Below, piece after piece: positions 10,702 through 33,266 of a stretch of DNA of 64,000 bases. Where the stretch lies: NCBI GenBank assembly GCA_963662795.1, contig OY759746.1:2528001-2592000 (forward strand), written 5' to 3'. The translations under genes and the position numbers were made by a program. Positions within the stretch are counted from its first letter, which is position 1; every line of letters begins with the position of its first letter. This DNA comes from Spirochaetia bacterium. GTDB taxonomy: Bacteria; Spirochaetota; Spirochaetia; CADAEX01. Under the pieces are notes generated by a model. That model was not told where the DNA came from. It did not search any database and saw only the letters and a list, made by a program, of their open reading frames with translations.

Positions 10702-10709
10702 CCGGAAAA

Positions 10710-11213: not shown

Positions 11214-11215
11214 GA

Positions 11216-12934: not shown

Positions 12935-13220
12935 TACGACCTCTGGTGAATAGGAATAAATAAAGAATATTTAATATAATTAAGCTATATATTGAAAACT
13001 GTCAATAAAAAAACATAAATAACATGAAAAACCTGCTTTAAGAATATTAAAATACAAAAAAATGACCGTAAAAATTGTAAAAACGGTTTAGTAGAATAAA
13101 CAATGACATAAATATAGCACAAATATTTGATATATCATTGAAGCTGTGTACTGCCCAATGGTGTGCAGGTAATTATTTTCCCTGTTTACCAAGACTGCAT
13201 TGTTCTGTATTATTTCAGGG

Positions 13221-13940: not shown

Positions 13941-14021
13941 AAAATGCATTCAGCTGCTCTAATCCTGAATAAAAATTCATAAAATATACAGATTATATTG
14001 CCGGCACAGAAAATAATGCTT

Positions 14022-14699: not shown

Positions 14700-14708
14700 A
14701 GCTTAAAG

Positions 14709-14726
14709 ATGTTATTATATTCACAT
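14709..14726. promoter_or_regulatory. Putative Rex operator
   Basis: ATGTTATTATATTCACAT fits TTGT(G/T)AANNNNTT(C/A)ACAA; between divergent rex and hyd, overlapping a candidate rex promoter (TTGACA at 14737-14732). Confidence 0.65.
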
Positions 14727-14812
14727 TAAATTGTCAATAATGTTTTTATCATGCTTAAAAAACATCATGCAGACAAAATTATCACAAAAACCGCAGTTTG
14801 AGGTATTTAATA

Positions 14813-14841
14813 TTGAATAATACTCAATAATAACATATAAT
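14813..14841 (+). promoter_or_regulatory. Sigma70-type promoter of the hydrogenase operon
   Basis: TTGAAT-N17-TATAAT; GGAGG RBS before ATG 14889. Confidence 0.6.
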
Positions 14842-14888
14842 GCTGTCGGAAAATACTGTTCAAGAACAGATAAAATAATGGAGGTTTC

Positions 14889-15377
14889 ATGTCTGTACAA
14901 ACTGCTGTAGAGATAAAATTCTCAAAAGAGCTTCTTGCTTTTATTGAGGATTGGAAAGAGAAGCCGGGCAACCTGATAATGGTTCTTCACAAGGTTCAGG
15001 AAGAATTCGGTTACGTACCGAGACAGGCTGCAATAAAGGTTTCTGATCTTCTTGAGGTACCCCTTGCCAAGGTATACGGGGTAATGACATTTTACCATTT
15101 TTTTAAATCTACCAAACCGGGAAAGTATAATATTCAGGTCTGTCTGGGCACTGCCTGTTATTTAAAAGGTGGAGAGGATCTTCTTCAGGAGCTGGAAACA
15201 GTACTTGGAATAGGGATTAATCAAGTAACTGAAGATGGAATGTTCTCCTATGAATCAGTCCGGTGTGTCGGCTGCTGCGGTCTTGCCCCGGTTATGGTTG
15301 CTGGGGGAGAGGTTTTCGGCAAGCTGACAAAGGATTCCATCCCTGAAATTATTGCTAATTTAAAAAACCAGGGGTGA
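14889..15377 (+). CDS. hydC: [FeFe]-hydrogenase 2Fe-2S subunit (NuoE/HydC/HndA-like)
   Basis: TFYHFF, VCLGTAC..CVGCCGLAP. Confidence 0.92.
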   Translation: MSVQTAVEIKFSKELLAFIEDWKEKPGNLIMVLHKVQEEFGYVPRQAAIKVSDLLEVPLAKVYGVMTFYHFFKSTKPGKYNIQVCLGTACYLKGGEDLLQELETVLGIGINQVTEDGMFSYESVRCVGCCGLAPVMVAGGEVFGKLTKDSIPEIIANLKNQG

Positions 15378-15381
15378 GACT

Positions 15382-15960
15382 GTGCATGCTGCCATCTGTG
15401 ATTTTATTGCAGATTGTCTTCAAAACTCGATCGAAGCTGAAAGCAGCCGAATTAGTCTTTTATATGAGAAATCCGGCAGCCTGATTAAAACAGTAATTGA
15501 AGACAACGGGAAAGGGATGACAAAAGAGCAGCTTGAGAAAGCGAGAGACCCTTTCTACACAGACGGCACAAAACATGCAAAGAGAAAAATCGGCCTCGGA
15601 ATACCTTTTTTACTGCAGGCAGTTAATATTTCCGGAGGGGCCTTCTCTCTTGAATCAGAAAAAGGGAAGGGGACAAGGCTTGAATTCAGTTTTGATTCTG
15701 CAAATATTGATACACCTCCCGAGGGAGACATAACATCAACCGTACTGCAGGCCATGATGTTTGACGGGGATTATGAACTTGAGTTCAAAAGGACGCTTAA
15801 ACGCGGCGGAGAGGCTGATAACGGAGATTGTTATAATATAAAAAGATCCGAATTGCTAGAAATCCTGGGAGATCTTTCAACTGCCGATACAATAAACCTT
15901 GCAAGGCAGTACTTGCAGTCCCAGGAAGAAAATTTGAATAAGGAGACAGGTAATGGCTAA
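15382..15960 (+). CDS. Stand-alone HATPase_c (GHKL) ATP-binding protein
   Basis: N box QNSIEA, G1 EDNGKGM, DPFYT, G2 GLGIP, G3 KGT; no HisKA segment. Confidence 0.85.
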   Translation: MHAAICDFIADCLQNSIEAESSRISLLYEKSGSLIKTVIEDNGKGMTKEQLEKARDPFYTDGTKHAKRKIGLGIPFLLQAVNISGGAFSLESEKGKGTRLEFSFDSANIDTPPEGDITSTVLQAMMFDGDYELEFKRTLKRGGEADNGDCYNIKRSELLEILGDLSTADTINLARQYLQSQEENLNKETGNG

Positions 15961-16345
15961 AATGACGCTTGAAGACCTGAGAAAGCTGAGGGAAGACAAA
16001 AAGAAGACCCTTGACAGGCGCGATGTTTCGGAAAATGACATTGCAATAATTATTGGAATGGGGACCTGCGGAATCGCGGCAGGCGCAAAAAAATCATTGG
16101 ATGCTTTTCTTGATGAAATCGATAAAAAAGGGCTTAAGCAGATCACTGTCAAGCAGACAGGGTGCATGGGCCTTTGTTATGTAGAACCGACCGTTGAAAT
16201 TAAAGTACCTGGCATGCCTGATACAATTTACGGGAAGGTTGATGAAGCAGTCGCAAGAATAATTGTCGATGAACATATCATGCAGAGAAAACTTGTCAGT
16301 AATCATATTTTTGACAAGCCTTCTGTGGATATTGTTAAAGGTTAA
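15953..16345 (+). CDS. Thioredoxin-like 2Fe-2S ferredoxin hydrogenase subunit (HydD/HndB-like)
   Basis: GMGTCGIAAGA..TGCMGLC.VEP. Confidence 0.88.
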   Translation: MAKMTLEDLRKLREDKKKTLDRRDVSENDIAIIIGMGTCGIAAGAKKSLDAFLDEIDKKGLKQITVKQTGCMGLCYVEPTVEIKVPGMPDTIYGKVDEAVARIIVDEHIMQRKLVSNHIFDKPSVDIVKG

Positions 16346-16357
16346 CGGAGGAAGTTG

Positions 16358-18151
16358 ATGGCACTTAAAAACTATATACTGGTTTGCGGCGGTACAGCCT
16401 GTGAATCATCTAAAGCAGATAGCATATACCAGGCCCTGGTTAAAGAAATCGAGGTCAACGGATTAAAAAAAGATGTCCAGATTGTGAAGACAGGCTGTTT
16501 CGGATTCTGCGAAAAAGGGCCGATTGTCAAGGTCCTTCCGGAAGAAGCTTTCTATGTGGAAGTAAAACCTGAAGACGCGAAAGAAATTGTGGCAGAAAAC
16601 ATTATAAAGGGACGTCTTGTTAAACGCCTGCTATATAAAGGCGAAGAGGTAAAGGGAAAAGACGCATTTGAAGCTGACGATATAAAATTCTATCAGAAAC
16701 AGTACAGGATAGTACTTAGAAACTGCGGTTTTATTGACCCGGAAAATATCGAAGAATATGTGGCAAGAGACGGATACTGCGCTCTTGAAAAATGTCTTTT
16801 TGATATTACTCCCGATCAGGTTATTGAAGAATTGAAAACTTCAGGACTCAGGGGCAGGGGCGGAGCTGGTTTCCCAACCTGGATGAAGTGGAATTTCAGC
16901 AAAATGGTAAGCGCGGACCAGAAATATATTGTCTGCAACGCGGATGAGGGCGACCCCGGCGCTTATATGGACAGAAGTACTCTGGAAGGAGATCCCCATT
17001 CAGTACTGGAAGCAATGGCTATTGCCGGATATGCGATCGGCTCAAACAAAGGAATCATCTACATTCGGGCTGAATATCCGCTTGCCATTAAACGGCTTGA
17101 AATCGCGATGAAACAGGCAAGGGAATATGGTCTTCTCGGTAAAAATATACTTGGCAGCAAATTTGATTTTGATATCGAAATCAGACTGGGCGCGGGCGCA
17201 TTTGTCTGCGGTGAGGAAACAGCGCTCTTAAGATCTATTGAAGGGAAAAGAGGTATGCCGACTCCCAAGCCGCCGTTTCCTGCAGTTGAAGGACTCTGGG
17301 GCAAACCGACTGTTATAAACAATGTTGAGACACTTGCCAATATCCCTGTAATTATACTTAAAGGCGGCGAATGGTTCTCTTCAATAGGAACACAGAAATC
17401 ACCGGGAACAAAAGTTTTCGCACTTACCGGGAGGATAAACAATTCCGGGCTTGTTGAGGTCCCGATGGGAACAACACTCAGGGAGATTATTTATGATATC
17501 GGCGGCGGAATCAAGGATAACAGGGCTTTTAAAGCTGTTCAGACAGGAGGCCCTTCGGGCGGAGTTATTACCGAAGAAAACCTTGATACACCTATTGATT
17601 TTGATACCTTGACAGCAATTGGCACAATGATGGGCTCCGGTGGCATGATTGTCATGAGCGAGGATGATTGTATCATCGATGTCGCTAAGTTCTACATGGA
17701 GTTCTGTGTAGATGAATCATGCGGAAAATGTTCGCCTTGCCGCATCGGGACAAAGAAACTTTTCCAGTATCTGGACAAGATATCAAAGGGAAATGCTACA
17801 CGCGATGATATGAAAAAAATGGAAGAGATAGGTATTGCAATGAAGAAAGCCGCGCTTTGCGGGCTCGGCCAGACTGCAGCCAATCCTGTCCTTTCCACAA
17901 TGAAATATTTCCGGAATGAATATCTTGAGCATATTGATGGCCAGAAATGTATAGCCGGTAAGTGTAAGGACCTTGTAAGGTTTGAAATAAGCCCTGAAAA
18001 ATGTATCGGCTGTACCATCTGCGCAAGAAAATGTCCTGTCAACTGCATCAGCGGCGAAAGAAAACAGCCGCATGTTATTGATCAGAGCAAGTGTATCAAG
18101 TGCGGTGAATGTTACAGTAACTGTAAATTCGGCGCAATAACGAAATATTAA
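16358..18151 (+). CDS. hydB: NADH/FMN-binding diaphorase subunit of bifurcating [FeFe]-hydrogenase (NuoF/HydB/HndC-like)
   Basis: GLRGRGGAGFPT, NADEGDPG, CGEETAL, ESCGKCSPCRIG, two C-terminal CxxCxxCxxxC. Confidence 0.94.
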   Translation: MALKNYILVCGGTACESSKADSIYQALVKEIEVNGLKKDVQIVKTGCFGFCEKGPIVKVLPEEAFYVEVKPEDAKEIVAENIIKGRLVKRLLYKGEEVKGKDAFEADDIKFYQKQYRIVLRNCGFIDPENIEEYVARDGYCALEKCLFDITPDQVIEELKTSGLRGRGGAGFPTWMKWNFSKMVSADQKYIVCNADEGDPGAYMDRSTLEGDPHSVLEAMAIAGYAIGSNKGIIYIRAEYPLAIKRLEIAMKQAREYGLLGKNILGSKFDFDIEIRLGAGAFVCGEETALLRSIEGKRGMPTPKPPFPAVEGLWGKPTVINNVETLANIPVIILKGGEWFSSIGTQKSPGTKVFALTGRINNSGLVEVPMGTTLREIIYDIGGGIKDNRAFKAVQTGGPSGGVITEENLDTPIDFDTLTAIGTMMGSGGMIVMSEDDCIIDVAKFYMEFCVDESCGKCSPCRIGTKKLFQYLDKISKGNATRDDMKKMEEIGIAMKKAALCGLGQTAANPVLSTMKYFRNEYLEHIDGQKCIAGKCKDLVRFEISPEKCIGCTICARKCPVNCISGERKQPHVIDQSKCIKCGECYSNCKFGAITKY

Positions 18152-19926: not shown

Positions 19927-19954
19927 GATTCTTTTCAGTACAGTAAATGAAAGG

Positions 19955-19983
19955 AGGCTTTCCGGCAGCGGAAAGCCTTTTTT
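19955..19983 (+). terminator. Rho-independent terminator of hyd operon
   Basis: AGGCTTTCCG-gcag-CGGAAAGCCT followed by TTTTT. Confidence 0.88.
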
Positions 19984-20023: not shown

Positions 20024-22714
20024 ATGAAAAAGTATCTGTTTATTGTTATTCCGGTTTTGGCTGTCATTTTTTGTTCCCTGTTTCTCTTAACTTCACTTGA
20101 CAGAAAAGTTTACGATCTTTTTTTAAGAACTCTGCCTTCCCTTAAAGAAGATGAATCAGTTCTTATTGTAAAAGTTGATGATCTGTCTATTGAAAACGTT
20201 GGAATATTTCCCTGGACAAGGGATATTCTGGCAGACGCGATTGTTTTTCTCCGTGAAATGGGAGCTGATTCAGTCGTATTCGATTTAAGCTATCTCGACA
20301 AAAGTCCGGTCAAGGTAGATCCCAAATATGTGAATCAGGAGCTGCCTGAATACCTTAACTATGGATTTAATCAGATTGATGATACCATCAGCCAGGTTAT
20401 GGATGCATTTGCCGGCCGGCAGATCGGCCCTTCCGATGCTGATGCCTACAAGAGACAGATGCTGAATTTTAACAGCACGGTGCGCGAATCGCTGAATACT
20501 TCAATTTCGTATGTTGCCAGGGACGTTGATGCGTACTTCGCAAAGACACTCCGCTTCTTCGGCAAATCATATTTAACCCTGACCATGGTTACTCCGGAAG
20601 ATATAATAGGTGAAGACAAAACCTTTGATATGTCGCCTTACGATGTTAAATGGCTTGAAGAGAATGTCGCGCTTAAAAATATAACAGCACTAAACGATAC
20701 ACTGACGCCGCAGCTGCCGGGTATAATTCCCGCCATCCCTGAGCTGCTTACAAATGCCAGCGGTGCCGGATTTGTGAACGCAGCGCCCGATCAGGACGGA
20801 TACCGCCGGAGGGTACACCTTCTGCTGAAATATAATGATAAATACTACGGACAACTTGGATTTGTTCCACTCCTCGATAAACTGGGAAACCCTGCGGTTG
20901 AGGTGACAAATAATTATATTTTTCTTAAAAATGCTGTTATTAACGGCACGGCAAGGGATGTCAGAATTCCCCGTACCGAAGACGGCTCAATTCTTGTTAA
21001 ATGGCCAAAAAAGGAATTCAGGGACTATAATCAGATTTCATCATGGGACCTGATTGCGAATAACAGGCAGGAAGCAGTATTTGTTAAAAATCTTAAAGCC
21101 ATGGAAGATGCCGGATTTTTTTCCTACTGGAATGAAGGTGAGACTCCTCTTGATAAGTACAATAATGCGGAATATGTAAAACAGATGCTTTTTGAAGGAG
21201 AAAATAATCAGGCAGGGATAACATTTGAAACATATGCTGCTTACAGAAAGGGTTTTATTGATACATCTGATCAGTTTTTAAACGGCAAATATGAAGATAT
21301 TATCCTTTCAGATATTGATAAGGACAACACTGCGGTTGTTGAATATGTTAATGGCTTTTTTAAAGCTGCACGGCAGCAGTACGCAGACCTGCTTGTTATC
21401 CGGGAAAAAGCTGAGAAAAAAACAGCCGGCGCCTTCTGTATTATCGGCGTTGATGCCACTTCCATGACTGACGACGGCCTGACTACATTCCAGGAGAGAT
21501 TTCCTAATGTCGGTATTCATGCTGCAGTAACAAACATGATTATATCTGAAGAGTTTCTGGATGATTCACCGGCTTACGTTTCCATAATTATTGCTCTAAT
21601 ACTTTCGGTATCACTCGGCATCTTTATCCAACGGTTCAATACCAAAAACGCGATGATTGCGGGGTTTCTTACTCTGGCAGTATCTGTTTTTTCCCTGCTC
21701 ATTCTGTTTGTCCTCTTCCGCAGATATATAGGCGTAGTAGTTCCATTTGCCTCAATATCCGCAACCTTTCTTACGCTTTCAGGTATTAATTTCTTCGATA
21801 CAATCAGGGAAAAATCATTCCTGCGCTCCGCTTTTTCCCGGTATCTTGCCCCTGCTGTTATAAATGAAATTATTGCAGATCCTTCAAAATTAAATCTTGG
21901 AGGGGAAAAACGGGAAATGACTGCAATTTTTACAGATATCAGGGGATTTTCAACTATTTCAGAAAGTCTTGATCCTGCCGATCTGGTTAAACTGCTGAAC
22001 CTCTATTTGACTGATATGAGTAATACAATTCTTGCAAACAGGGGAACAATTGATAAATATGAAGGAGATGCGATCATTGCATTTTTTGGAGCTCCCATTC
22101 ATATGGCTGAGCATGCTGCCCTTGCGTGCCGCACAGCGATACAGATGAAAATAGCGGAAAAAGAACTGAATAAACGAATTATTGCGGAAAATCTCTGTCC
22201 GTCACAGCTATTCACCAGAATTGGTATTAATACAGGAGATATGATTGTCGGAAATATGGGAACACCGGATAAAATGGACTATACAATTATGGGAAACGCG
22301 GTAAACCTTGCCGCGCGGCTTGAAGGGGTAAATAAACAGTATGGTACCCGCGGTATCCTGATAAGCGAGCATACAAGGGCCCAGGTCGGGGATGAATTCC
22401 TCCTCCGCCGTCTTGACCGGATCCGGGTTGTCGGTGTCAACAGGCCGCTCAGGATATTTGAGCTGCTTTCGTTTGCCAAGGATGCTGATATGATTACGGA
22501 AAGCTCTGCCGCATCAATAATACCGCAATGGGAAAAGGCGATAGACCTCTATGAAAAACAATTATTCACAGAAGCCCGTGATATTTTTAAGGAAATTGCT
22601 GTAAAGGATAATGAGGATATGGTTGCTCCGCTCTTTGCAGGCCGATGTGAGGCGTTCCTTAAAAATCCGCCGGTTAAGGACTGGGACGGGGTATTTACAC
22701 TTTCAGAGAAGTAA
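20024..22714 (+). CDS. CHASE2-domain class III adenylate cyclase
   Basis: N-terminal TM; CHASE2 motifs (VDD.SI...G.FPW.R, VVFDL, D.DGYRRR, GV.IHA); 3 TM; catalytic FTDIRGF, DKYEGDA, DYTIMGNAVNLAARLEG (Lys/Asp pair of ATP-specific enzymes); helical tail ending WDGVF. Confidence 0.92.
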   Translation: MKKYLFIVIPVLAVIFCSLFLLTSLDRKVYDLFLRTLPSLKEDESVLIVKVDDLSIENVGIFPWTRDILADAIVFLREMGADSVVFDLSYLDKSPVKVDPKYVNQELPEYLNYGFNQIDDTISQVMDAFAGRQIGPSDADAYKRQMLNFNSTVRESLNTSISYVARDVDAYFAKTLRFFGKSYLTLTMVTPEDIIGEDKTFDMSPYDVKWLEENVALKNITALNDTLTPQLPGIIPAIPELLTNASGAGFVNAAPDQDGYRRRVHLLLKYNDKYYGQLGFVPLLDKLGNPAVEVTNNYIFLKNAVINGTARDVRIPRTEDGSILVKWPKKEFRDYNQISSWDLIANNRQEAVFVKNLKAMEDAGFFSYWNEGETPLDKYNNAEYVKQMLFEGENNQAGITFETYAAYRKGFIDTSDQFLNGKYEDIILSDIDKDNTAVVEYVNGFFKAARQQYADLLVIREKAEKKTAGAFCIIGVDATSMTDDGLTTFQERFPNVGIHAAVTNMIISEEFLDDSPAYVSIIIALILSVSLGIFIQRFNTKNAMIAGFLTLAVSVFSLLILFVLFRRYIGVVVPFASISATFLTLSGINFFDTIREKSFLRSAFSRYLAPAVINEIIADPSKLNLGGEKREMTAIFTDIRGFSTISESLDPADLVKLLNLYLTDMSNTILANRGTIDKYEGDAIIAFFGAPIHMAEHAALACRTAIQMKIAEKELNKRIIAENLCPSQLFTRIGINTGDMIVGNMGTPDKMDYTIMGNAVNLAARLEGVNKQYGTRGILISEHTRAQVGDEFLLRRLDRIRVVGVNRPLRIFELLSFAKDADMITESSAASIIPQWEKAIDLYEKQLFTEARDIFKEIAVKDNEDMVAPLFAGRCEAFLKNPPVKDWDGVFTLSEK

Positions 22715-22715
22715 A

Positions 22716-22748
22716 AAAAAAGACTGTTTATTAAAAACAGTCTTTTTT
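22716..22748. terminator. Bidirectional intrinsic terminator between cyclase and FecR-like gene
   Basis: AAAAAAGACTGTTT-attaa-AAACAGTCTTTTTT between convergent genes. Confidence 0.85.
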
Positions 22749-22775
22749 ATACATTGATTTAATTTTTTAAATATT

Positions 22776-23216
22776 TTATTCCTTTTTCTCTTCAACCCAC
22801 TGCACATCTTCTACTGCGTCGCTTGCACGTGTTGAAGCGGTAGAAATGTTTGTCCGCCCCTGGACAGAATTGGCATTTACAGTACTGTCTGTTACAGCAG
22901 CGCCCAGTTTAATACCTGAAAGACCCTGAGCAGGGCTTGTCAGTTTTTCAACAGTGCCTTTCTGCATTGCCTTGACCGTGACCACCCTGTCTCCAATCTT
23001 AAGAATAAGAGAGGAATTAAGACCGGTGTTTATCATTGTCGAGGGCGCAATTTTTTTGTCAGCGGATAAAGCTTCCCATTTGCCCGCAGAAACCTCATAA
23101 CTCACAATTCCGTTTACCGACTGGATAACAATATCCTGTCCTGAAACCTGAGCAAATAAAGCTGTGGAAATTGCAACAGTGCCCAGCACCATCGCCAATA
23201 AGAATATTTTCTTCAT
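22776..23216 (-). CDS. Small secreted FecR-like domain protein
   Basis: SPI signal MKKIFLL..ALFA; V.G.V.Y...W..L....I....INTG.NS...L pattern of FecR-type domains; GGAGG RBS before ATG 23216. Confidence 0.6.
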   Translation of the reverse strand: MKKIFLLAMVLGTVAISTALFAQVSGQDIVIQSVNGIVSYEVSAGKWEALSADKKIAPSTMINTGLNSSLILKIGDRVVTVKAMQKGTVEKLTSPAQGLSGIKLGAAVTDSTVNANSVQGRTNISTASTRASDAVEDVQWVEEKKE

Positions 23217-23235
23217 AGAATCCTCCACTTAATAT

Positions 23236-23265
23236 ATTATATAACACATCCGCCTGGAAATACAA
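23236..23265 (-). promoter_or_regulatory. Candidate own promoter of the FecR-like gene
   Basis: TTGTAT-N18-TATAAT on minus strand. Confidence 0.45.
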
Positions 23266-23310
23266 GGTCGTCTCTGTTAAAGTGCTGTGTTACGGTAAAG
23301 AGCCAGTTTT

Positions 23311-26300
23311 TCATTTTTCATCCCTCTTTATCAGGTATTTACGCCTGAAATAAAGGTATGCGCAAATCATTATCCCGGTTGAAAACAGCAGAGCCATCAG
23401 CGCGATGTGGTTTTTAAAATATTCTGCAGCTGATATTTCAGGAGTTTCAGAAACAGTCATCTTTTTATTAAAAACTGTCTTTTCGGTTTCAGGTATTGAT
23501 GCAGCATGCTCCGGAGAAGATACCTGAATTATTTCATTCACGGCTGATACATTTTCTCCCGTTCCCTGTGTTGTTTTGTTCATGCCGACAGAGGCTTCTG
23601 CATTTTCCGGTGCTGTATTTACACTGCTTACAGTCTGAACTCCCTTAACTCCTGAATCAAATTGATAGCCGGCAACCTGAACAGTACTTTTCACAGCTTT
23701 TCTTGAAGTGGTAGATTTAACCTGGTTCTGAGTAATACCTGAATAAGGTTCTGTAGTTTCAACCTGACTCACCCTGTGCTTTGAATATCTTGTTGTTGCG
23801 TTCCTGACAGAAGCAGATGTATAGTCGGATATTGAAGTGGTTATGGAGTTTTCTGTATAACCTGCTGATCGGGAGGCGGCTCCTCCATATGTCCAGTCGT
23901 CGGTATCCCAAGTCATTTGATATCCGTTGCTTGTTTCATTTCCCAGGTCGTCTGCAACACTGAACCGGAAAGTTTGCTCCTGAACTGAAACATCCAGAGC
24001 TGTTGTTGTTGTCAGCGACCCTGTTTTAACAGCTGTTGCGTGGGTATATGTTTTTACCGTGCCGTCGGTTATAGCCTGAGCCTTGGTACCTGTCCCCGGC
24101 CAGTAATAAATGATCCTGATTCCTGAAACTTCAGCAGAGGATAAAGTTATTGTTAATTTGTTGTTGGCGCTTGAAGCGCTTGGACTGGAAGCACCGGTAT
24201 TTATCTCTGGAGCTGTCGTATCTACAGTGATTGTAGCCGAGTTTGATTTGGTAACATTACCGGCAGAATCCCTTACATAAAGATAGAAAGCCTTATCAGC
24301 CCCGTCAGTTGTAGCAGAAGCAAGGTTGACAGATGTAAGTGTCTGCGAGGTGCCTGTAAGAGTTTCCCATGTTTCAGCGCTGTACGCCGGTGCGGTAGTT
24401 TCGATCGTAACAATATAGGCAGAAAGCGACGTGGTATCTGCAACAGTTAATGATGTTACAGGAACAGATGTAAGTGTTGCAGTCGATGGGTTGGTGAACA
24501 CAAAGGTGCCGGTTAATGTTGGTAGGATTCCTTCAATTATGATGTCTTTTGTGGTACCGCCGAGTGATTCGTCAGAGTCAAGTGCCGGCAATGCCAGATT
24601 AGCATTATTGCTGGCCGCGTCCTTTATTGTTCCTCCGTTCAGAACAAGTGCTGCTGTAGAAGCATAGTTAAGGTCTGAGGTTGTATCACCGGCTGCAACA
24701 GTGTAACTGAAAGTAAGGGCAGAAGTGTCCGATCCGCTTGTGTATGATATATTTTTGTTTCCAGAGGAAAGTGCAAGTGTGAGATAGGGTGTTCCTGTGA
24801 CTGTCACAGCTTCCGGGAAATTAACCTTAATGGGTATTTCAGTTCCGGCAGGGTATGTACCAGTCTCTGTGGTTGTTGTAACGTTTGAGACTGTCGGTGC
24901 GGTTGTATCGATTTTTATATTCTTTGTGGTACCACCGAGTGATTCGTCAGAGTCAAGTGCCGGCAATGTCAGATTAGCATTATTGCCGGCTGTGTCCTTT
25001 ATTGTTCCTCCGTTCAGCACAAGGGCTGATGTACTTGCATAGTTTAGGTCTGCGCTTGTATCTCCGGCTGCAACAGTGTATGTGAATGAGAGCGCTGTTG
25101 TGCCTGAACCGGATGGGTCGTCTAATCCTATATTTTTGTTTCCAGAGGAAAGCGCAAGTGTGAGATAGGGCGTTCCTGTGACTGTCACAGCTTCCGGGAA
25201 ATTGACCGTAATAGGTATTTCAGTTCCGGCTGGATAGGAGCCGCTCTCCTTTGTTGTCGTAACGCTTGAGACTGTCGGTGCGGTTGTATCGATTTTTATA
25301 TTCTTTGTGGTACCGCCGAGTGATTCGTCAGAGTCAAGTGCCGGCAATGTCAGATTAGCATTATTGCCAATTGAATCTTTTATAGTTCCTCCGTTCAGCA
25401 CAAGGGCTGATGTACTTGCATAGTTTAGGTCTGCGCTTGTATCTCCGGCTGCAACAGTGTATGTGAATGAGAGCGCTGTTGTGCCTGAACCGGATGGGTC
25501 GTCTAATCCTATATTTTTGTTTCCAGAGGAAAGTGCAAGTGTGAGATAGGGCGTTCCTGTGACTGTCACAGCTTTGGAGAAATTGACCGTGATAGGTATT
25601 TCAGTTCCGGCTGGATAGGAGCCGCTCTCCTTTGTTGTTGTAACGCTTGAAACTGTTGGCAGAACAGCGTCGATTACAATATTCTTTGTTGTACCGCCGA
25701 GCGACTCGGCAGAGGCAAGTGCCGGAAGAGTAAGTGTGGCATTATTGCCAATTGAATCTTTTATAGTTCCTCCGTTCAGCACAAGGGCTGATGTACTTGC
25801 ATAGTTTAGGTCTGCGCTTGTATCTCCGGCTGCAACAGTGTATGTGAATGAGAGCGCTGTTGTGCCTGAACCGGATGGGTCGTCTAATCCTATATTTTTG
25901 TTTCCAGAGGAAAGTGCAAGTGTGAGATAGGGCGTTCCTGTGACTGTCACAGCTTTGGAGAAATTGACCGTGATAGGTATTTCAGTTCCGGCTGGATAGG
26001 AGCCGCTCTCCTTTGTTGTCGTAACGCTTGAAACTGTTGGCAGAACAGCGTCGATTACAATATTCTTTGTTGTACCGCCGAGCGACTCGGCAGAGGCAAG
26101 TGCCGGAAGAGTAAGCGTGGCATTGTTGCCGGCTGTGTCCTTTATTGTACCGCCGTTCAGCACAAGGGCTGATGTACTTGCATAGTTTAGGTCTGCGCTT
26201 GTATCTCCGGCTGCAACAGTGTATGTGAATGAGAGCGCTGTTGTGCCTGAACCGGATGGGTCGTCTAATCCTATATTTTTGTTTCCAGGTGAAAGCGCAA

Positions 26301-28356
26301 GTGTGAGATAGGGCGTTCCTGTGACTGTCACAGCTTCTGAGAAATTAACCTTAATGGGTATTTCAGTTCCGGCAGGGTATGTACCAGTCTCTGTGGTTGT
26401 TGTAACGTTTGAGACTGTCGGTGGCATTGTATCTTTAAAAAAGTTCCGGGCAGCGATATCTGATACATTACCTGCCGTATCAGTTGCACGTATTCCAACC
26501 GTGAAAGGTCCGGATGAAAGCCCGTCGAAAGAGGTGATCGAATCAATCGAATTACCGCTCGCAAAAGGCTGCCAGCTGCCTGAATTAATTTGCACTTCAA
26601 CTGTTCCTTCGCTTCCTGTAAAGCTGATGTCCTGAGTTCCATTCACATAAGCGCCGTTTGCGGGTGATGATATGGTGATTACCGGTTTTTCAGTATCTTT
26701 AGTGATTTCAAGCTGTGCGCTTAGTCCGCCTGGGTTGCCGGCTTTATCTGTAACTCGTGCTGTGATTTGTTTTGTCCCGTCTGTTCCAAAAGTCGCTGAG
26801 TTGAGAGTAAATATATAATTGCCGGTAACCTCAGCAGCAGTCAATGTGTCTGACATCTTGACTGCTCCGTCGATCAGCAGGCTTATCGTGTCATCTTCTA
26901 CCGCACCGCTTGATGCGAGAGGAGCTGTAATTGTCATGCTTGTCGTGTTTATATTTAAATATGATTCTGATTTGGTAAGGGTTTCCGGAGTTCCAGGCGG
27001 AATGGAATCATAAACTACTTCAGCCGTTAAAGCTGTTAAGCTCACATTTCCTGCCTTGTCATAGGCTGCAATTGTTATTGTATTGTTGCCTTGTGCTGCA
27101 GGGGTGATATCTGTGAAAACCCCGTTAGTAGATGGATCCACAACACCTGATGCACCTGCTGTAACCTTATATTCTTTGATTCCCGAAAGTCCGTTGTCTG
27201 CACCTGAAACTGTGAAAGAAAGCGGTGAATTTGTTAATGCAGCTGGTGGCGACGGAGTAAAAGCCGGTGTATCCGGAGGCTGCCTGTCTAGTATAATGTT
27301 TGCTGTTTTTGTGAGTGATGGATTGTTTGATGGATCATATACAATAACAGAAATTGTTCTATTCCCGTCAATATCAGGCAGTGTAACAGGAATATTGTTT
27401 GTATGTGTATTGTTATAAAGAGTGTTGTCAAATTCGTCTTTGATAAGAGCCTTCAGTTCGGTTGAACCGCTGTTATCTCCTACTTCGAAATTTAAAAGAA
27501 TATTTCGTGAGTTTGTCGGATTATTGACTGGAAGAGCTGTACCGCTTTCATTCTTAACCGTAATGTCCAAAACTGTAGGAGGTTCTGTATCTTTTAGTTT
27601 ACTGGTAACAAAGCGGACTGTTTTACCTGCAGTCATTGTATTACCATTGAGATCCTCAATTTGTTGAAGAATTGTTACAAAAATCTCATAGTATGCATCG
27701 GTTGTTCCGAGAAAATTATCTGATTTTAAATTTAGAGTTAATACAGAACCATCAAGGACCGGATCCTCAAAAAAAGAATTAATGGGATCAGGATCACTAG
27801 ATGACCCGCTTAACCGGCGTTGTATAATGATGTTGCTCTGGGTTGCAGTATTTATATCAACCGGCCTGGAAAAAGTAATTTTTATCGGTCTAGTGATAAT
27901 TACTTCCTGTTCGTTATCATAAGGAGCTGTAGAAACAACGTACGGTCTTGTGTCAAACATTGCACGAATTTCAAGATTGGAAGTTTTTTTATTTACTGTG
28001 GCAGTTGTTTCTTTGCTTGCCGCGTTTGTGAATGTTATATCACCGGAATTTCCGCCGATCTGCATCCAGTTTAAAAAAGCGAATTCGCTGTTTGTAGTTG
28101 TTGTTATATTAAAAGGAACGCCGACTTTTACAATTGCTGCCCCGAGCGGGCTTGTTGTTCCCATACTGTCGCTTTCAGCGCGGACAGTTATTGTAACCTC
28201 TTCCGCATTGGCAATCAGAACTTCATCTTCTATTGCCGCCTTGAGGTCATCATCCCCTGACATGAAATTATTGCAGCTGCTGATGAAGCTGATTAAAAGG
28301 AATGCTGTTATTAAAAAAGCTATTAGAGCCTTTTGATTTCTAATGCGTTTTATCAT
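23311..28356 (-). CDS. Large Ig-like repeat lipoprotein (adhesin-like) with C-terminal TM anchor
   Basis: Lipobox FISSC; successive Ig-like units (PYVVST.P..I.ITFS.PVD; DTxxP..DxAGN); five ~127-aa repeats; Ser/Thr-rich linker; TM HIALMALLFSTGIMICAYLYF plus RRK tail. Confidence 0.85.
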   Translation of the reverse strand: MIKRIRNQKALIAFLITAFLLISFISSCNNFMSGDDDLKAAIEDEVLIANAEEVTITVRAESDSMGTTSPLGAAIVKVGVPFNITTTTNSEFAFLNWMQIGGNSGDITFTNAASKETTATVNKKTSNLEIRAMFDTRPYVVSTAPYDNEQEVIITRPIKITFSRPVDINTATQSNIIIQRRLSGSSSDPDPINSFFEDPVLDGSVLTLNLKSDNFLGTTDAYYEIFVTILQQIEDLNGNTMTAGKTVRFVTSKLKDTEPPTVLDITVKNESGTALPVNNPTNSRNILLNFEVGDNSGSTELKALIKDEFDNTLYNNTHTNNIPVTLPDIDGNRTISVIVYDPSNNPSLTKTANIILDRQPPDTPAFTPSPPAALTNSPLSFTVSGADNGLSGIKEYKVTAGASGVVDPSTNGVFTDITPAAQGNNTITIAAYDKAGNVSLTALTAEVVYDSIPPGTPETLTKSESYLNINTTSMTITAPLASSGAVEDDTISLLIDGAVKMSDTLTAAEVTGNYIFTLNSATFGTDGTKQITARVTDKAGNPGGLSAQLEITKDTEKPVITISSPANGAYVNGTQDISFTGSEGTVEVQINSGSWQPFASGNSIDSITSFDGLSSGPFTVGIRATDTAGNVSDIAARNFFKDTMPPTVSNVTTTTETGTYPAGTEIPIKVNFSEAVTVTGTPYLTLALSPGNKNIGLDDPSGSGTTALSFTYTVAAGDTSADLNYASTSALVLNGGTIKDTAGNNATLTLPALASAESLGGTTKNIVIDAVLPTVSSVTTTKESGSYPAGTEIPITVNFSKAVTVTGTPYLTLALSSGNKNIGLDDPSGSGTTALSFTYTVAAGDTSADLNYASTSALVLNGGTIKDSIGNNATLTLPALASAESLGGTTKNIVIDAVLPTVSSVTTTKESGSYPAGTEIPITVNFSKAVTVTGTPYLTLALSSGNKNIGLDDPSGSGTTALSFTYTVAAGDTSADLNYASTSALVLNGGTIKDSIGNNANLTLPALDSDESLGGTTKNIKIDTTAPTVSSVTTTKESGSYPAGTEIPITVNFPEAVTVTGTPYLTLALSSGNKNIGLDDPSGSGTTALSFTYTVAAGDTSADLNYASTSALVLNGGTIKDTAGNNANLTLPALDSDESLGGTTKNIKIDTTAPTVSNVTTTTETGTYPAGTEIPIKVNFPEAVTVTGTPYLTLALSSGNKNISYTSGSDTSALTFSYTVAAGDTTSDLNYASTAALVLNGGTIKDAASNNANLALPALDSDESLGGTTKDIIIEGILPTLTGTFVFTNPSTATLTSVPVTSLTVADTTSLSAYIVTIETTAPAYSAETWETLTGTSQTLTSVNLASATTDGADKAFYLYVRDSAGNVTKSNSATITVDTTAPEINTGASSPSASSANNKLTITLSSAEVSGIRIIYYWPGTGTKAQAITDGTVKTYTHATAVKTGSLTTTTALDVSVQEQTFRFSVADDLGNETSNGYQMTWDTDDWTYGGAASRSAGYTENSITTSISDYTSASVRNATTRYSKHRVSQVETTEPYSGITQNQVKSTTSRKAVKSTVQVAGYQFDSGVKGVQTVSSVNTAPENAEASVGMNKTTQGTGENVSAVNEIIQVSSPEHAASIPETEKTVFNKKMTVSETPEISAAEYFKNHIALMALLFSTGIMICAYLYFRRKYLIKRDEK
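24535..26433 (-). repeat. Five tandem intragenic repeats, period 381 bp (127 aa; last copy 375 bp)
   Basis: GTGACTGTCACAGCTT recurs at 24797, 25178, 25559, 25940, 26321. Confidence 0.95.
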
Positions 28357-31336
28357 AATCTGTTACTTCTCTTTTATTTATTATAGTCTTTTTTTTCTCA
28401 GCTTTCCTGTTTTTTGATTTTAACTTCTTTCTCAGGATGCGAAGCCTGGCGCGCACAAAAACAGCAGTCCCAGCTGCTGCGGCCGCTATGAACGCCATCA
28501 GCGCAATGAAAGGAGCGGCTTTTGACGGAGATTCTGTTTTTACAGTCTCAGTTGATTCCGGTACCGGTACTGCAGGCACTGGCGCGGCAGGTAATTCTTC
28601 GATAACCGGGGCCTCATCAACAGGATCTTCTTTTACAGAAGAGGGCTTTGGCAGAACAGGTTTAATAGCAGGGGCTGGCGGTTTTTTAATCTCTTCACTC
28701 TCTAAAATACCAGGGCTGATTTCTGAACCGCGCAATCCTGCTGATAGACCTTCTGTTTCCGGAATATCCGATAAAGCAAGTTCCATTGGGGCAGTCGGTG
28801 TCTCAACCGGTAAGATTTCTTTTGGCTCGGTTTCCGGCCCTGCCTCAGCTGTTTCTATAACCCTGTCCGCCTTGTCATCGGTCGTTTTTTCATTAACTTC
28901 AGGGGCGATATTTTCTATTACAGCAACGGAAACCTCAGCCTCCGGTACGGCAATAGCAGGTGCTGCTTCCGGTTTTTCTTCAGCGGCTAAAACAGGTTCA
29001 AGAGCCGGCTGTTCAGCTGCATCAGGTATCTTCGCAAGGTTATTGTTACCTTCTCCTGTAACAGACAGCATTGAAGAAAGTCCCGCGTTTCCGTTAAGAG
29101 GAAAATCTTCAGCAGGTGCTGTTTCCGGTTCATCAGCCGGACTCTCCGGCACCTTTTCCTGAGGATCGGGTTCTTCAGGCTGCACAGCAGGTTCCGATTT
29201 TTTTCCCGTGCTTATAGTTTCTGCAGGAGCTGCGGGAGGAAGGCTCCATTCTGTGGTGGAAAGCCGGTCTGCCAGCGACCAGGCCCTTCCCCTGGTATCA
29301 AAAAAGGACCCGAGATAGGCATATTTCCTGGAAAGCGGTGCATCCTGTTTCTGGAGCGAAGCATACATTGCATCGGAGTTTCCGAAATCATCAAGTTCAT
29401 AATTGCATCTTGCGGCTCCAAGCAGCGCAAGAGAATTGTTTTTGTCAATTGAAAGAACATAATTGTAGTATGTAAGAGCTTCATCGTATTTCTGCTCAAT
29501 AAACAGTATGTTCCCGAGGTTTGTCCATGCGTTCATATCCTTGCCGCGGGCAGCTTTGGTGAATTCTGTTTTAGCCTGCAGTATCATTCCGTATTTCCCG
29601 TATAAAACGCCTAGCTTATTGCGGTTTTTAGGTGTATCGGAAACTGCGAGCAGTTCCTCGTAATGCCTTATCTGGGGACGGATCTCCCGCTCTGCATAAT
29701 TGTTAAGTGTTTTATCAAAGGCAATCGCGGTTTTTGTCTCATCAGGCAGACTGAATCTGGAAACAGCTCCAGGAATACTTACAGGCTTATATATTTTCCA
29801 GGATTCCTTCATCGGCAGAATATTGGCAGTACCTCTTGAATCGGCATCATTCCATTCTTTGGCTCCGATTCTCCATGCTTTATTAAAGTCTTCTTTGATA
29901 AGTGTAATTTCAACCGGGACCCATGCTGTCCCGTCATGATAAATCAGAAGCTCCGGAGCATAAAAAGACTCCTTTGCTTCAGTTTCTGTCATTCCGGAGG
30001 AAAATGCCATAAAGATATGGCCGGGTATTGTTATAAATGCAGTATCAATACCGATTGCTTCAAGCAGTGAGCTGTACAATATCGATAGATCGTCACAGTC
30101 TCCCCCGCGGTACATCAGGGTCTGATAGGGATACTGCAGAAAGTCTATCGCAGTGCTGTTATCGGCGATTTCCGCGTATGAGCTTGAAGGGTCAATAACA
30201 TAATTAGTTCCGTAGATATCAAGAGCTTCAAAAATACCCATGGCATACTGCATATTTTTGTTTAAACCCATCCGGAAGCGGTCATTTACAATGCTTGAGA
30301 CATACTTTGAGAACCATAATGCGGCAGGATCTTTCGAAGATACAAATGCCGCAGCTCTCCTGTCATCTTCCCACGACATGGCATTTCGGTGAAAAACATT
30401 CATGGTTACCGGTATTTCAGCTTTCTGTTTTGCTCCAAGTCTTCTGTACTCAACAATAATCTTCGCCTGGGCATTAAGCGGTTCGCTTAACTCAAGCATT
30501 GTTTCCTTAAAAAAGGCGGAAACCGGAACATCAAAGGATTCCCCCGGCTTCAGGCTCTCAAAGCTTGAACATTCTTTCGGCTGTCCCATATACTGCTCAA
30601 GATAGAATGATGTTTTTACATCTGTAATTGTATTTTTTTCATTATTTGTAATTTTTATAATTGAGAACGGATTATCATCATACCATGAATACAATACAGG
30701 GAAAACAGGCTCCTGTTCCTCTTTTTCCGCGCTAATATTCCTTTCCCGGGAAAGAGCTTCCTTCAGGTTGATGGATATGCCTACTCCGATACTTAAGGAA
30801 TTCATGAAGGGTTCCGGTGTATATGCATAATGCCTGTATGCTCCATATACTGATGTGCTTAATACAGGGGAGACATGATAGGTACCCTCAATTCTTGTCC
30901 CGGCTGATATTCCTGATATTGAAGTTTCATTTCTACTGACTGAATAAATGCCGGTCATCAAATCAGTTCTCAGAGTCAGCCGGTCATTCATCTGCCAAAG
31001 CAGTCCGGCTCCGATGCTTCCGTCCGTTAAAGCAAGAGGTTCAATATTCTCAAGGCCTATGTTGACATATTCCCCCTGGGCAAAAATACTTAAAAACGGG
31101 AGCGGTGTAAAATCAAAGGCCGCAGACGCGCCCATACCGGGCTTAAATACAGGATCATTGACTGGGAAATAATAACCGGGATAAATCCTTACGCCTGTTG
31201 AAGATGAGTCTGCTGTAAGCAGGGGTGAAGAATATATGCAGATAAGCAGAAAAATAATAAGGCAATATTTTGATTTTTTCAGAGATTCTGTCATATCGGC
31301 AGGTAATAATTTATTTAACCGTTTCAGGGAAATCAT
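28340..31336 (-). CDS. Predicted beta-barrel + Ig-like + transglutaminase-like (Cys/His intact) + TPR protein with Pro/Glu-rich linker and C-terminal TM
   Basis: Signal peptide; ~8 amphipathic strands ending GVGISINL; GDCDDLSILYSSLLEAIG..PGHIF..WVPVE; TPR units (NKLGVLY, AWTNLGNI, ALLGAARC); TM FIALMAFIAAAAAGTAVFV plus basic tail; start ATG 31336 or 31294. Confidence 0.8.
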   Translation of the reverse strand: MISLKRLNKLLPADMTESLKKSKYCLIIFLLICIYSSPLLTADSSSTGVRIYPGYYFPVNDPVFKPGMGASAAFDFTPLPFLSIFAQGEYVNIGLENIEPLALTDGSIGAGLLWQMNDRLTLRTDLMTGIYSVSRNETSISGISAGTRIEGTYHVSPVLSTSVYGAYRHYAYTPEPFMNSLSIGVGISINLKEALSRERNISAEKEEQEPVFPVLYSWYDDNPFSIIKITNNEKNTITDVKTSFYLEQYMGQPKECSSFESLKPGESFDVPVSAFFKETMLELSEPLNAQAKIIVEYRRLGAKQKAEIPVTMNVFHRNAMSWEDDRRAAAFVSSKDPAALWFSKYVSSIVNDRFRMGLNKNMQYAMGIFEALDIYGTNYVIDPSSSYAEIADNSTAIDFLQYPYQTLMYRGGDCDDLSILYSSLLEAIGIDTAFITIPGHIFMAFSSGMTETEAKESFYAPELLIYHDGTAWVPVEITLIKEDFNKAWRIGAKEWNDADSRGTANILPMKESWKIYKPVSIPGAVSRFSLPDETKTAIAFDKTLNNYAEREIRPQIRHYEELLAVSDTPKNRNKLGVLYGKYGMILQAKTEFTKAARGKDMNAWTNLGNILFIEQKYDEALTYYNYVLSIDKNNSLALLGAARCNYELDDFGNSDAMYASLQKQDAPLSRKYAYLGSFFDTRGRAWSLADRLSTTEWSLPPAAPAETISTGKKSEPAVQPEEPDPQEKVPESPADEPETAPAEDFPLNGNAGLSSMLSVTGEGNNNLAKIPDAAEQPALEPVLAAEEKPEAAPAIAVPEAEVSVAVIENIAPEVNEKTTDDKADRVIETAEAGPETEPKEILPVETPTAPMELALSDIPETEGLSAGLRGSEISPGILESEEIKKPPAPAIKPVLPKPSSVKEDPVDEAPVIEELPAAPVPAVPVPESTETVKTESPSKAAPFIALMAFIAAAAAGTAVFVRARLRILRKKLKSKNRKAEKKKTIINKREVTDYDKTH

Positions 31337-31364
31337 ATGAAAAATACTTCTCCTGTTCCTCTCT

Positions 31365-33266
31365 CTATTCGGCAAGCTGGGATTGCATTCTGTTAAAACC
31401 GCTTTGAGCGGCCCTGTTGTCAGGTTCAATTTCAAGCGCTTTTTCAAACCAGCCGAGTGCTTCTTTATAATTACGCTGCAGTATTTCGATGTTTCCGAGA
31501 TTTGTCATTGCCGCGGCTGAATCAAGTTCCGCAGATTTGATGAATTCCGCTTTTGCTTCATTATACAATCCTGCCCTTACATATAACAAGCCCAGTTTAT
31601 TGTAAAGAACAACTGATCCTCCGCTATTGCGAATTTCATTTTGCACATCTTTTATTCTTGGACCGAATTCTGCAGCAATGTATCTTAAGAAACTTGTTTC
31701 AACAGCTTTTTCTACAACTGAGGCCGCCGGCTTCTGGAAAGCGGCTTCATTCCCTGTAATTCCGGACGGCGGATACGTTTTCCAGGCTTCCTGAAGCACT
31801 ACAAAGTCAACCGGTCTGCCGCTGTTGATGGCTCTGGAAAGGTTATTTACAGCAGTATACCAGCTGTTGATAAAACCCTCACGCAGGACAGATAAAGACA
31901 GGGGCATCCATATTTCGTTCCCGATGGTAAGTAAATTATCAGTATTGTTAAAAAGTGCTACGGCCTGTTCCTGTGTGATATCGAGTGAAAAAGCTGTAAT
32001 AAAATCATTATCAAGAGGAATCAGGGCTGTTTTTATTCCCACAGATTCAAGCGCGGCTGCGAAAAGTATTCCAAGATCATCATAATCCCCAAGCTTGTAG
32101 GAAAGTGTCTGGAATGGATATTGTATATAGTCAAGCAGTGCCGGGTCTTTGTGGAAAACTGTGTAGGGGGTTGTGTCATCTTTGGATGTGGTAATGCCGC
32201 CTGTATTAAGCCCCTCAAGCAGATACATGGCAAACTGCATGTTCCGGTTAAGGCCGCTTCGCAGATTGTTCCTCGCTATTCCCACAATATATTTTGAATA
32301 ATCCATTACTTCAGGTGAATTGGGTGAAATGAATGAGGCAAGGACATCTGTACTGGTCCACCTGACCGAGTTTCGGTTATACACCGGGATAACCAGCGTT
32401 TGAAATGCAGTGCGTTCTGCTCCAAGAAGTTCGTATTTTATAACCAGTTCGCCCGGAATCATCCCGTTTTCCGTGAAGTTCTGTATGGTCTCCATAAAGT
32501 CGGCATAAAGCGGTATTTTTGCTGTTTCCTTCTTTTTTAGTAACTCTTTTGTACCGCAGGCCATGAGGGAAGAGGTATAGTTTTCAGCCCTGAAACTTAC
32601 AGATACATTGCGTATTTCGGCGGATTCATTATTGACGATTTCAATCGTACCTATTTTGTTGGTTTTATACATGCTGTAAAGGAGAGGGAATACCGGTTCC
32701 TGTTGTTCAAGTGTTACTCCCACATTTCCGGCTGCTGTATCTGTGTCAAATGAAAGCCTGGCCGAGAGACCTAAAACTATTCCGGTATACATCGGCTCCT
32801 GTGAAGCAGTAAAATTTATATATCCTGCCCCGGCAGAGAAAACCAGGGTGGGGGACATCCTGAACCCTGCTTCCCCATATAATTTCCACCAGAGATCGCT
32901 GTATGAAAGTTCGTTGTATGTGAACTGGTACAAACCTCCGGACACGCCGAACAGCAGGGCAAGCCTCGAAAGCGGATAGGAAAACACGCTTGCATTAATC
33001 CCTGCTGAAGTGAAATTGGGATATGTTCCGGTATTTAACAGAGGAGTCACATAATAGCTGAATTCAGGACCAAAAGCCAGAAGGTCGAATAACTGTACAT
33101 CGGTGTTCAGGCATACTCCGCCGCCGGGCGAAAAATATCGGGTTGTCTCATCGCCGACAGGAAAAATTGCGGTCGGGGTTGCTTTTATGTCAAAATCCAA
33201 TGAATATATTTCGCCTGCTGACAGAAGCAGCAGAAAAAAACATAGAACACTGCCTGATAACTTCAC
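31365..33266 (-). CDS. Paralogous predicted beta-barrel + Ig-like + inactive transglutaminase-like + TPR protein
   Basis: Aligns by eye with downstream gene (QEPVFP.LYS.Y, D..QYP.QTL, NKLG.LY) but has GDYDD for GDCDD and LDNDFI for IPGHIF; no linker or TM. Confidence 0.8.
   Translation of the reverse strand: MKLSGSVLCFFLLLLSAGEIYSLDFDIKATPTAIFPVGDETTRYFSPGGGVCLNTDVQLFDLLAFGPEFSYYVTPLLNTGTYPNFTSAGINASVFSYPLSRLALLFGVSGGLYQFTYNELSYSDLWWKLYGEAGFRMSPTLVFSAGAGYINFTASQEPMYTGIVLGLSARLSFDTDTAAGNVGVTLEQQEPVFPLLYSMYKTNKIGTIEIVNNESAEIRNVSVSFRAENYTSSLMACGTKELLKKKETAKIPLYADFMETIQNFTENGMIPGELVIKYELLGAERTAFQTLVIPVYNRNSVRWTSTDVLASFISPNSPEVMDYSKYIVGIARNNLRSGLNRNMQFAMYLLEGLNTGGITTSKDDTTPYTVFHKDPALLDYIQYPFQTLSYKLGDYDDLGILFAAALESVGIKTALIPLDNDFITAFSLDITQEQAVALFNNTDNLLTIGNEIWMPLSLSVLREGFINSWYTAVNNLSRAINSGRPVDFVVLQEAWKTYPPSGITGNEAAFQKPAASVVEKAVETSFLRYIAAEFGPRIKDVQNEIRNSGGSVVLYNKLGLLYVRAGLYNEAKAEFIKSAELDSAAAMTNLGNIEILQRNYKEALGWFEKALEIEPDNRAAQSGFNRMQSQLAE

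Follow-up and report, generated by a model that had tools for sequence, protein, structure and literature searches.

Elsewhere, CHASE2 cyclases cluster with FecR and tetratricopeptide repeat (TPR) genes (PMC9239204, PMC5192318), and in S. meliloti they answer to a barrel protein of the outer membrane (PMC13001267); clusters of CHASE2, FecR, TPR and barrel genes are, by the passages cited here, already published (PMC9239204, PMC5192318, PMC13001267, PMC5498481). In three such cases (NsrA-CyaD1/CyaD2/CyaK-Clr of S. meliloti, CHASE2+FecR+TPR of Campylobacterota and LysM-FecR with a CHASE2 kinase in Burkholderia), those passages tie the CHASE2 receptor to barrel, TPR and FecR-type parts and name no protease or pseudoprotease. 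Two further systems bear comparison, again as far as the cited passages go. In the Lap and Dvh systems (LapA-LapG-LapD and DvhA-DvhG-DvhD), retention domains contact the LapG-like protease DvhG, and the triad of LapG and DvhG is Cys-His-Asp (PMC13090378). In FecA/FecR cell-surface signalling, the full FecR domain self-cleaves between Gly and Thr (PMC12036975). Here we describe a five-gene block at positions 20,024 to 33,266 of a 64,000-nucleotide (nt) stretch, the window, of contig OY759746.1 from a Spirochaetia bacterium (assembly GCA_963662795.1, positions 2,528,001 to 2,592,000). It encodes a CHASE2 cyclase, a small secreted protein with half a FecR domain, a giant lipoprotein and two paralogous barrel proteins, one an apparent protease and the other its dead twin. 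The five genes very probably belong to one functional module, which by analogy may work like a Lap system in reverse, or like the NsrA-CHASE2 pathway with a protease inserted. The combination was not found described in the open-access literature. CHASE2-FecR-TPR-barrel clusters are known; what is new is a shared C-terminal tag, the link between small protein, protease and cyclase, and the capture of the small protein by phage-like DNA.

The original prediction had placed five envelope genes as a block after the hydA terminator, and the open reading frame (ORF) listing of the window bears this out: all five ORFs lie where it put them and a terminator-like hairpin is present. The block is bordered by hydA and this hairpin on the left and by a flavodiiron-type gene on the other side. 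Its features are as follows.

19950..19983, + strand: terminator-like hairpin after hydA, left boundary (15-pair stem, then a T run)
20024..22714, + strand: CHASE2 class III nucleotide cyclase gene, by Pfam (ATG at 20024; longest ORF from 19988)
22716..22748, no strand assigned: hairpin between the convergent cyclase and small genes, with A and T runs at its flanks, likely a bidirectional terminator
22776..23228, - strand: small secreted protein gene (146 amino acids from the ATG at 23216), by structure model, fold match and profiles
22797..22841, - strand: conserved tag T-A-S-x-R-A-S ... W, residues 130-144 of the small protein
23311..28356, - strand: giant lipoprotein gene (1681 amino acids, lipobox Cys28)
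28340..31447, - strand: active-type paralogue gene (1035 amino acids, likely start 31336)
31365..33266, - strand: dead paralogue gene (633 amino acids)

The predicted 17-nt overlap between the lipoprotein gene (23311-28356) and the gene of the 1035-residue paralogue (28340-31447) is there. As the cyclase gene lies on the opposite strand, tail to tail with the other four, the block is not one operon and comprises at least two transcription units. The domain labels first attached to these genes stood for the most part, with CHASE2, Guanylate_cyc, Big_5/Big_13 and TPR recognised by Pfam, but the small protein has no Pfam FecR match.

The block recurs more often than chance would allow, and in both cyclase orientations. 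Co-localisation across genomes had been set beforehand as the check on the proposal, and it was found. Among 37 genome loci fetched through the dead paralogue, the active paralogue follows directly in 35 (the exceptions being one contig end and one partial match), and a giant lipoprotein was seen in 19. The small gene and the cyclase were searched for in 20 of the 37 genomes, mostly those with longer contigs; the small gene was present in all 20, and its best copy adjoins a cyclase orthologue in 19, with the 20th at a contig end. All five genes share one contig in six other genomes (G062, G063, G064, G065, G066 and G075). Among cultured organisms, Treponema zioleckii kT3 (L021, G080) is a carrier. 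As the first genomes had been picked through the protease, the linkage test was repeated with the small gene as anchor. In 80 metagenome loci so anchored, a cyclase lies within 1 kb in 57, within 3.1 kb in two and nowhere nearby in 10, the other 11 being too short, so that it adjoins the small gene in 59 of the 69 informative loci. Orientation among the 57 is co-directional in 49 and convergent in 8, and gene order varies as well, with the cyclase sitting between the two paralogues in L120 and L281. Upstream of the small gene, the 80 loci carry a protease gene in 21 cases (directly adjacent in 20), a long ORF in 15 and another gene in 17, and 27 are too short. These counts (19/20 genomes, 59/69 loci) overturned the idea that the cyclase is a chance neighbour.

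The sequence of the cyclase points to an inner-membrane CHASE2 class III enzyme, predicted to be an adenylate cyclase. Pfam finds CHASE2 (E 4.7e-32) and Guanylate_cyc (E 2.2e-18), hydrophobic segments lie at residues 11-39 and 527-590, and the class III motifs were located at D650, D694, K690, T766, N773 and R777, which we take to be catalytic-type residues with the Lys/Thr specificity of an adenylate cyclase. The protein thus combines a periplasmic CHASE2 domain, membrane helices and a cyclase domain with catalytic motifs; no solved structure matched its CHASE2 region. All trees quoted here are quick trees; in that of the cyclases, a long branch with good support divides those linked to the small gene from their FecR-linked paralogues. 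Elsewhere, the genome of the window encodes two more full-length CHASE2 cyclases (L158, G000:C1:3873372-3894255), each near a small helical protein, a predicted barrel protein of ~440 amino acids, one or more full FecR-domain genes and one or more lipoprotein genes. An insertion-sequence-like ORF (identified by eye) lies between the second cyclase and its partners, and the same type of arrangement was found again in other spirochaetes (L175, L176).

The small protein consists of a signal peptide, a domain resembling half of FecR and a retention module, a disordered linker and the C-terminal tag. It has no Pfam match, no FecR match was listed for 32 family members, and its profile matched no solved structure by sequence. 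In the structure model, mature residues 1-73 are folded and the remainder is disordered. A fold search of 48,161 chains gave 5IX9, a 'cell surface anchoring domain', as the best match (Z 9.0, root-mean-square deviation (rmsd) 4.7 over 75 aligned residues; next match Z 3.7); according to the passage cited, 5IX9 served as the template for the retention module of LapA (10.1101/198937). The NCBIfam model retention_LapA matches 117/140 small-family members at E<=1 (best 7.6e-8), with the protein of the window itself, at 14.7 bits, far below the cut-off of 50. In hhalign, the small-family profile aligns with a Pfam-FecR protein of the same genome at 97.9% (E 4.7e-13), and the alignment stops where the R-A of the tag meets the R-G of FecR, the R-G that precedes the Gly-Thr self-cleavage site of full FecR domains. 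There is no second half, and the nucleophilic Thr is not kept. From the fold match and the half-FecR alignment together, we read the small protein as the first half of a FecR domain, modelled in the shape of a retention module and followed by a conserved tag. The label 'FecR-like' was therefore right as to homology and holds for the first half of the domain only. A literature search found no paper naming both the FecR domain and the LapA retention module.

Relatives of the small protein also occur in other settings. The genome of the window has an orphan paralogue (G000:C1:2453693-2454157) that is 58% identical and keeps the tag, with no cyclase or enzyme gene nearby. In L091, L096, L101, L184 and L193, a protein of ~290 amino acids that joins half-FecR, the motif G-V-R-x-x-E...W and TPR lies near single or paired enzymes of the protease family, and this longer form is likely the ancestor of the small protein.

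The tag connects the small protein with the protease family at the level of sequence. R134 and A135 are invariant in 140 small-family sequences. Across 150 database representatives, the tag ends 86/93 stand-alone proteases, follows the TPR in 43/45 stalked ones and is found in 0/12 that lack TPR; it also ends 110/120 small proteins, as against 0/120 orthologues of the dead twin of the window and 2/120 cyclases. As the pattern had been drawn by eye from the protease and small-protein families, a strict-pattern count and profile controls were added. The strict pattern ends 3/2,535 ORFs of the window genome. When a profile was trained on nothing but protease tails, the small protein of the window came first of 4,249 ORF ends (15.2 bits, next 8.4); the profile places 117/120 small proteins above the 99.9th percentile and passes 0/120 dead twins and 0/120 cyclases. 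In seven genomes with the enzyme pair and no short small gene found, the dead twin is ~50 residues longer and ends R-A-S...W-acidic.

The two paralogues are 30% identical over 640 columns (E 4e-88). AlphaFold, run on a 99-row alignment, modelled residues 79-745 of the 1035-residue protein with a mean predicted local distance difference test (pLDDT) of 92.7 as an eight-stranded barrel, an Ig-like domain, an alpha/beta domain and TPR helices. In fold searches the barrel matches NspA (Z 19.8, rmsd 2.3, 149 aligned) and OmpA; barrel and TPR matches filled the lists, so the transglutaminase domain was not reached there. Transglut_core matches the alpha/beta domain in 66/67 members at E<=1 (best 3.9e-6), the active paralogue of the window scoring 17.7 bits, under the 23-bit cut-off. 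The model, the fold searches and the Transglut_core matches together support the barrel and transglutaminase-like parts that had been predicted. Searched against the PDB, the protease-domain profile returned four matches in all, each weak, including one named transglutaminase-like as well as 4fgo (E 0.75) and 4u65 (E 0.9), both of which we take to be LapG; Peptidase_C93 was not among the Pfam matches of the domain. The proposed split into protease and pseudoprotease is also borne out, as only one paralogue has the Cys-His-Glu triad. The active one carries C451-H477-E513, and 67/99 aligned proteins have Cys-His-Glu, the third residue being Glu in all 67. The other 32/99, which include the 633-residue paralogue of the window, keep the His in no case. 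This dead twin has the same barrel-Ig-transglutaminase-TPR layout, with the triad replaced by Tyr/Asp/Ser, and stops at the TPR without a tag. In the active twin the TPR is followed by an internal version of the tag that has diverged (residues 720-735), then by a Pro/Glu stalk and, at the C-terminus, a transmembrane segment; stalk and membrane segment are also present in most complete orthologues. Because it has both the barrel and this stalked C-terminal segment, the active paralogue could span the envelope. Dead enzymes also occur singly: in L090 and L097, one with a tail lacking Arg-Ala is divergent from a gene for a lipoprotein of ~760 amino acids (FecR-PEGA-beta-propeller in L090).

The giant lipoprotein comprises the lipobox, a conserved N-terminal amphipathic segment, Ig-like domains, a basic low-complexity stalk and a C-terminal transmembrane segment, and includes a 127-residue repeat in 4.9 copies (24548-26423). 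Both it and the 1035-residue paralogue end in a hydrophobic segment and basic tail, which the original prediction had not mentioned. A stalk and membrane segment end 12 of 15 giant-lipoprotein C-termini inspected; in the same 15, examined by eye, Arg is frequent before the stalk and there is neither a Trp motif nor a conserved tag. Giant lipoproteins without the C-terminal membrane segment end in P-[FI]-C-M-P in L002, L068 and L072. The proposal that the Ig lipoprotein is the essential input found no support. The protease gene lies directly before the small gene in 20/80 loci, no lipoprotein gene was recognised in any of the five protease-small loci whose genes were listed (5/5), and none was seen in the compact four-gene forms of the module.

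Set beside the Lap and Dvh systems, the locus has in common a transglutaminase-fold Cys enzyme with a Cys-His-acid triad, a giant Ig-repeat protein, coupling to a second messenger, and a domain resembling a retention module, with a linker and then a short motif of small residues behind it. It differs in that the enzyme carries an eight-stranded outer-membrane barrel, has a dead twin and uses Cys-His-Glu instead of Cys-His-Asp; the retention-like domain is a free protein with its own signal peptide; and the motif is R-A...W rather than [T/A/P]AAG. In place of the cyclic di-GMP receptor LapD or DvhD there is a cyclic AMP (cAMP) synthase, the CHASE2 cyclase being the sole inner-membrane receptor of the block. 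Type I secretion genes are absent from the block, and the flow is likely outside-in. The giant protein, with a lipoprotein signal at its start and a transmembrane segment at its end, is not built as a Lap adhesin. Compared with the NsrA-type systems, only half of the FecR part is present, with a tag, and an enzyme is attached to a small barrel (eight-stranded, NspA/OmpA-like). With FecA/FecR signalling, as described in the cited passage (PMC12036975), the locus shares a FecR-type domain whose tag R-A aligns with the R-G before the Gly-Thr site; a sigma factor and a TonB receptor are lacking, the small protein carries no membrane anchor, the halved domain lacks its Thr, and the output would be cAMP. 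The NCBIfam model of ProA, from the anti-phage system Prometheus, is hit over its N-terminal positions 14-292 by the active paralogue, in the Ig-transglutaminase part (E 1.5e-8), but that model has 1,903 positions and a cut-off of 1500 bits against 32.5 here, and only the Ig-transglutaminase domain is common to both. A DUF4011-containing cluster is among the Atlas neighbours.

Our preferred reading, to which we give an even chance, is that the protease pair binds and cuts the tagged small protein, which in turn sets the output of the CHASE2 cyclase. We infer pairing, docking, cleavage and cyclase control in the following form. Both paralogues would face the periplasm and pair, the longer also being tethered to the inner membrane by its stalk. 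The Ig-transglutaminase-TPR body would be the docking site of the tag. Stand-alone family members would use it in cis; in the module of the window, where the dead twin has lost its own tag, docking would be in trans. The active twin would cut at or near Arg-Ala, as an enzymatic counterpart of FecR self-cleavage, and the cut or released half-FecR domain would act on CHASE2 and change cyclase output and cAMP. As for the giant lipoprotein, it would serve as cargo or sensor where present, with its state adjusting the protease.

Several observations weigh against this reading. LapG-type enzymes cut Ala-Ala and are blocked by Arg-Arg substitution, according to the cited passage (PMC13090378), so an Arg-Ala site would be a new specificity; and in S. 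meliloti one FecR-domain gene and one TPR gene under cAMP control are, by the passage cited, not required for signal perception (PMC5498481). Many of the small-anchored loci are close kin, and most loci overall are related rumen or gut Treponema-like sequences, which are not independent samples. The parts also occur separately, as small gene and cyclase without a nearby protease gene (L121, L221, L255), as protease pairs without small gene or cyclase (L122-L127, L194-L196) and as the orphan small paralogue. As to the tag, the reverse test failed, with a small-protein tail profile finding no protease tail in five genomes, and the internal copy of the active paralogue scores 1.2 bits and is recognised by position only. 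The tag-less dead twins form one clade (8 of the 35 rows of the tree), so the tag was lost once and its complementarity with the small gene is a single event. In G236 and G248 the tag is degenerate and no short small gene was found, and in G027 a half-FecR-tag-TPR gene adjoins a tag-bearing dead twin, so supply of the tag in trans is not the only logic.

A rather doubtful alternative treats the tag as a docking latch and not a cleavage site. Here the dead twin would hold the small protein and free it on a signal, the free protein would act on CHASE2, and the active twin would work on the lipoprotein or its own stalk instead. It suits the dead twins that keep the tag in the seven genomes mentioned above, the compact modules, which keep TPR on the dead twin as the active twin loses both TPR and tag (0/12 short forms tagged), and the active paralogue's own tag, whose Trp half is modelled with higher pLDDT than its Arg half (84 vs 65, AlphaFold). 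It does not readily accommodate the alignment of the invariant Arg-Ala with the FecR cleavage loop, its position after a retention-module-like domain, like the LapG site, or the intact triad in compact modules showing no lipoprotein gene. Also unlikely, in our estimate, is a machine for handling the giant lipoprotein, which the enzyme pair would mature, anchor or release, with the small protein and cyclase forming a separate FecR-CHASE2 sensor that would only control or accompany it. The same-strand gene directly downstream of 63 active-type enzymes was classed as a lipoprotein gene in 35 cases, as a small-protein gene in 12 and as something else in 16; the 35 have a similar N-terminal segment, and several of the 16 are lipoproteins missed by the pattern. 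The protease domain, moreover, is found in 115 genomes of a 301-genome class sample and the short small gene in about 6, and in the window the cyclase and small gene have promoter-like sites of their own. This leaves unexplained why the small protein bears the protease family's tag and why 20 loci have a protease gene directly before the small and cyclase genes. That unrelated envelope genes have come to lie side by side by chance, as the opposite strands, the terminator-like hairpin and the separate occurrence of parts might suggest, is hardly credible given that the linkage survives inversion and reordering and that the small-linked cyclases branch apart from the FecR-linked ones.

Phage-like DNA has repeatedly captured the small protein without cyclase or enzyme, or its tag alone. 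Six of the 10 cyclase-less small-gene loci look like phage DNA: in L273 the small gene adjoins a major head gene, L209 contains a gene for a head-tail adaptor and L256 one for a phage RNA ligase, and L271 is a 369-kb contig with nucleotide-metabolism genes; L239 and L275, with homing endonucleases and flagellin genes (L239 also FlaA), are the weakest cases. IMG/VR holds the contig of L273 and a further small-gene copy on a 224-kb contig (L278). In a quick tree, these seven small proteins branch at at least three separate places among 30 host copies. In two more IMG/VR sequences, an unrelated N-terminal part is fused to the bare tag: L279 lies beside a terminase gene and has an incomplete start, L280 has a signal peptide, and their tags score 18.4 and 17.9 bits on the protease-tail profile. 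The viral scans required the tag pattern, and tag conservation in phages is therefore not independent evidence. No CHASE2 relative was seen in viral contigs scanned with one pattern only, and the closest protease match among them belongs to a full module that borders on a predicted prophage. A search of GenBank phages with a phage tail found no match, and further viral scans gave no new loci. The flagellin genes lie within a few genes of the captured small gene (L239:3563-5331, with FlaA, and L275:6129-6968), and on the phage-like contig of L209 short paralogous ORFs with Trp/Gly-rich repeats follow one another in tandem over a long stretch (9728-17081).

A more far-reaching and tentative form of the cleavage reading is an outside-in alarm of spirochaetes, in which the protease pair would sense surface attack (phage binding to the lipoprotein or its loss), cut the diffusible half-FecR messenger at its Arg-Ala...Trp tag and fire the cyclase. 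Unrelated phages would then have acquired the messenger on three or more occasions, or put the bare tag on secreted proteins of their own, to jam or hijack the response. The phage-borne copies of small protein or tag and the domain shared with ProA are at most indirect pointers to anti-phage defence. If so, the LapA retention module and its cut site would be a repurposed half of the self-cleaving FecR domain.

Some observations concern the surroundings of the block. Scanning the window for CRP boxes yielded 19 matches, where 25 were expected, and 0 in the intergenic gaps of the block, so cAMP feedback on the operon is without support here. A CRP/FNR-family regulator gene at 41562-42263, ~8 kb off, adjoins an Fe-S gene and is probably unrelated to the cyclase. 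In L091 and L096, from the same family as the window genome, a different cassette of the same enzyme family directly follows hydA (half-FecR-TPR protein, single active enzyme, lipoprotein and LVIVD protein), which makes this a swappable locus.

The module bears on what CHASE2 domains sense and on the route by which outer-membrane partners pass a signal to them across the periplasm; the ligands of CHASE2 were, by the passage cited, not known as of 2016 (PMC5192318). The module offers a 125-residue soluble candidate CHASE2 ligand with a conserved tag of 15 residues, together with a candidate processing enzyme that has a built-in dead control and natural phage-borne mimics, and with candidate ligand, enzyme and mimics in hand the question of CHASE2 sensing becomes directly testable. 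By sequence and fold, the analysis also connects FecR domains to LapA retention modules, and it gives a large enzyme family without a name (1,518 clusters at 50% identity, E<1e-30) a tag in common. We conclude that the module is real and conserved, and a candidate form of trans-envelope CHASE2 signalling.

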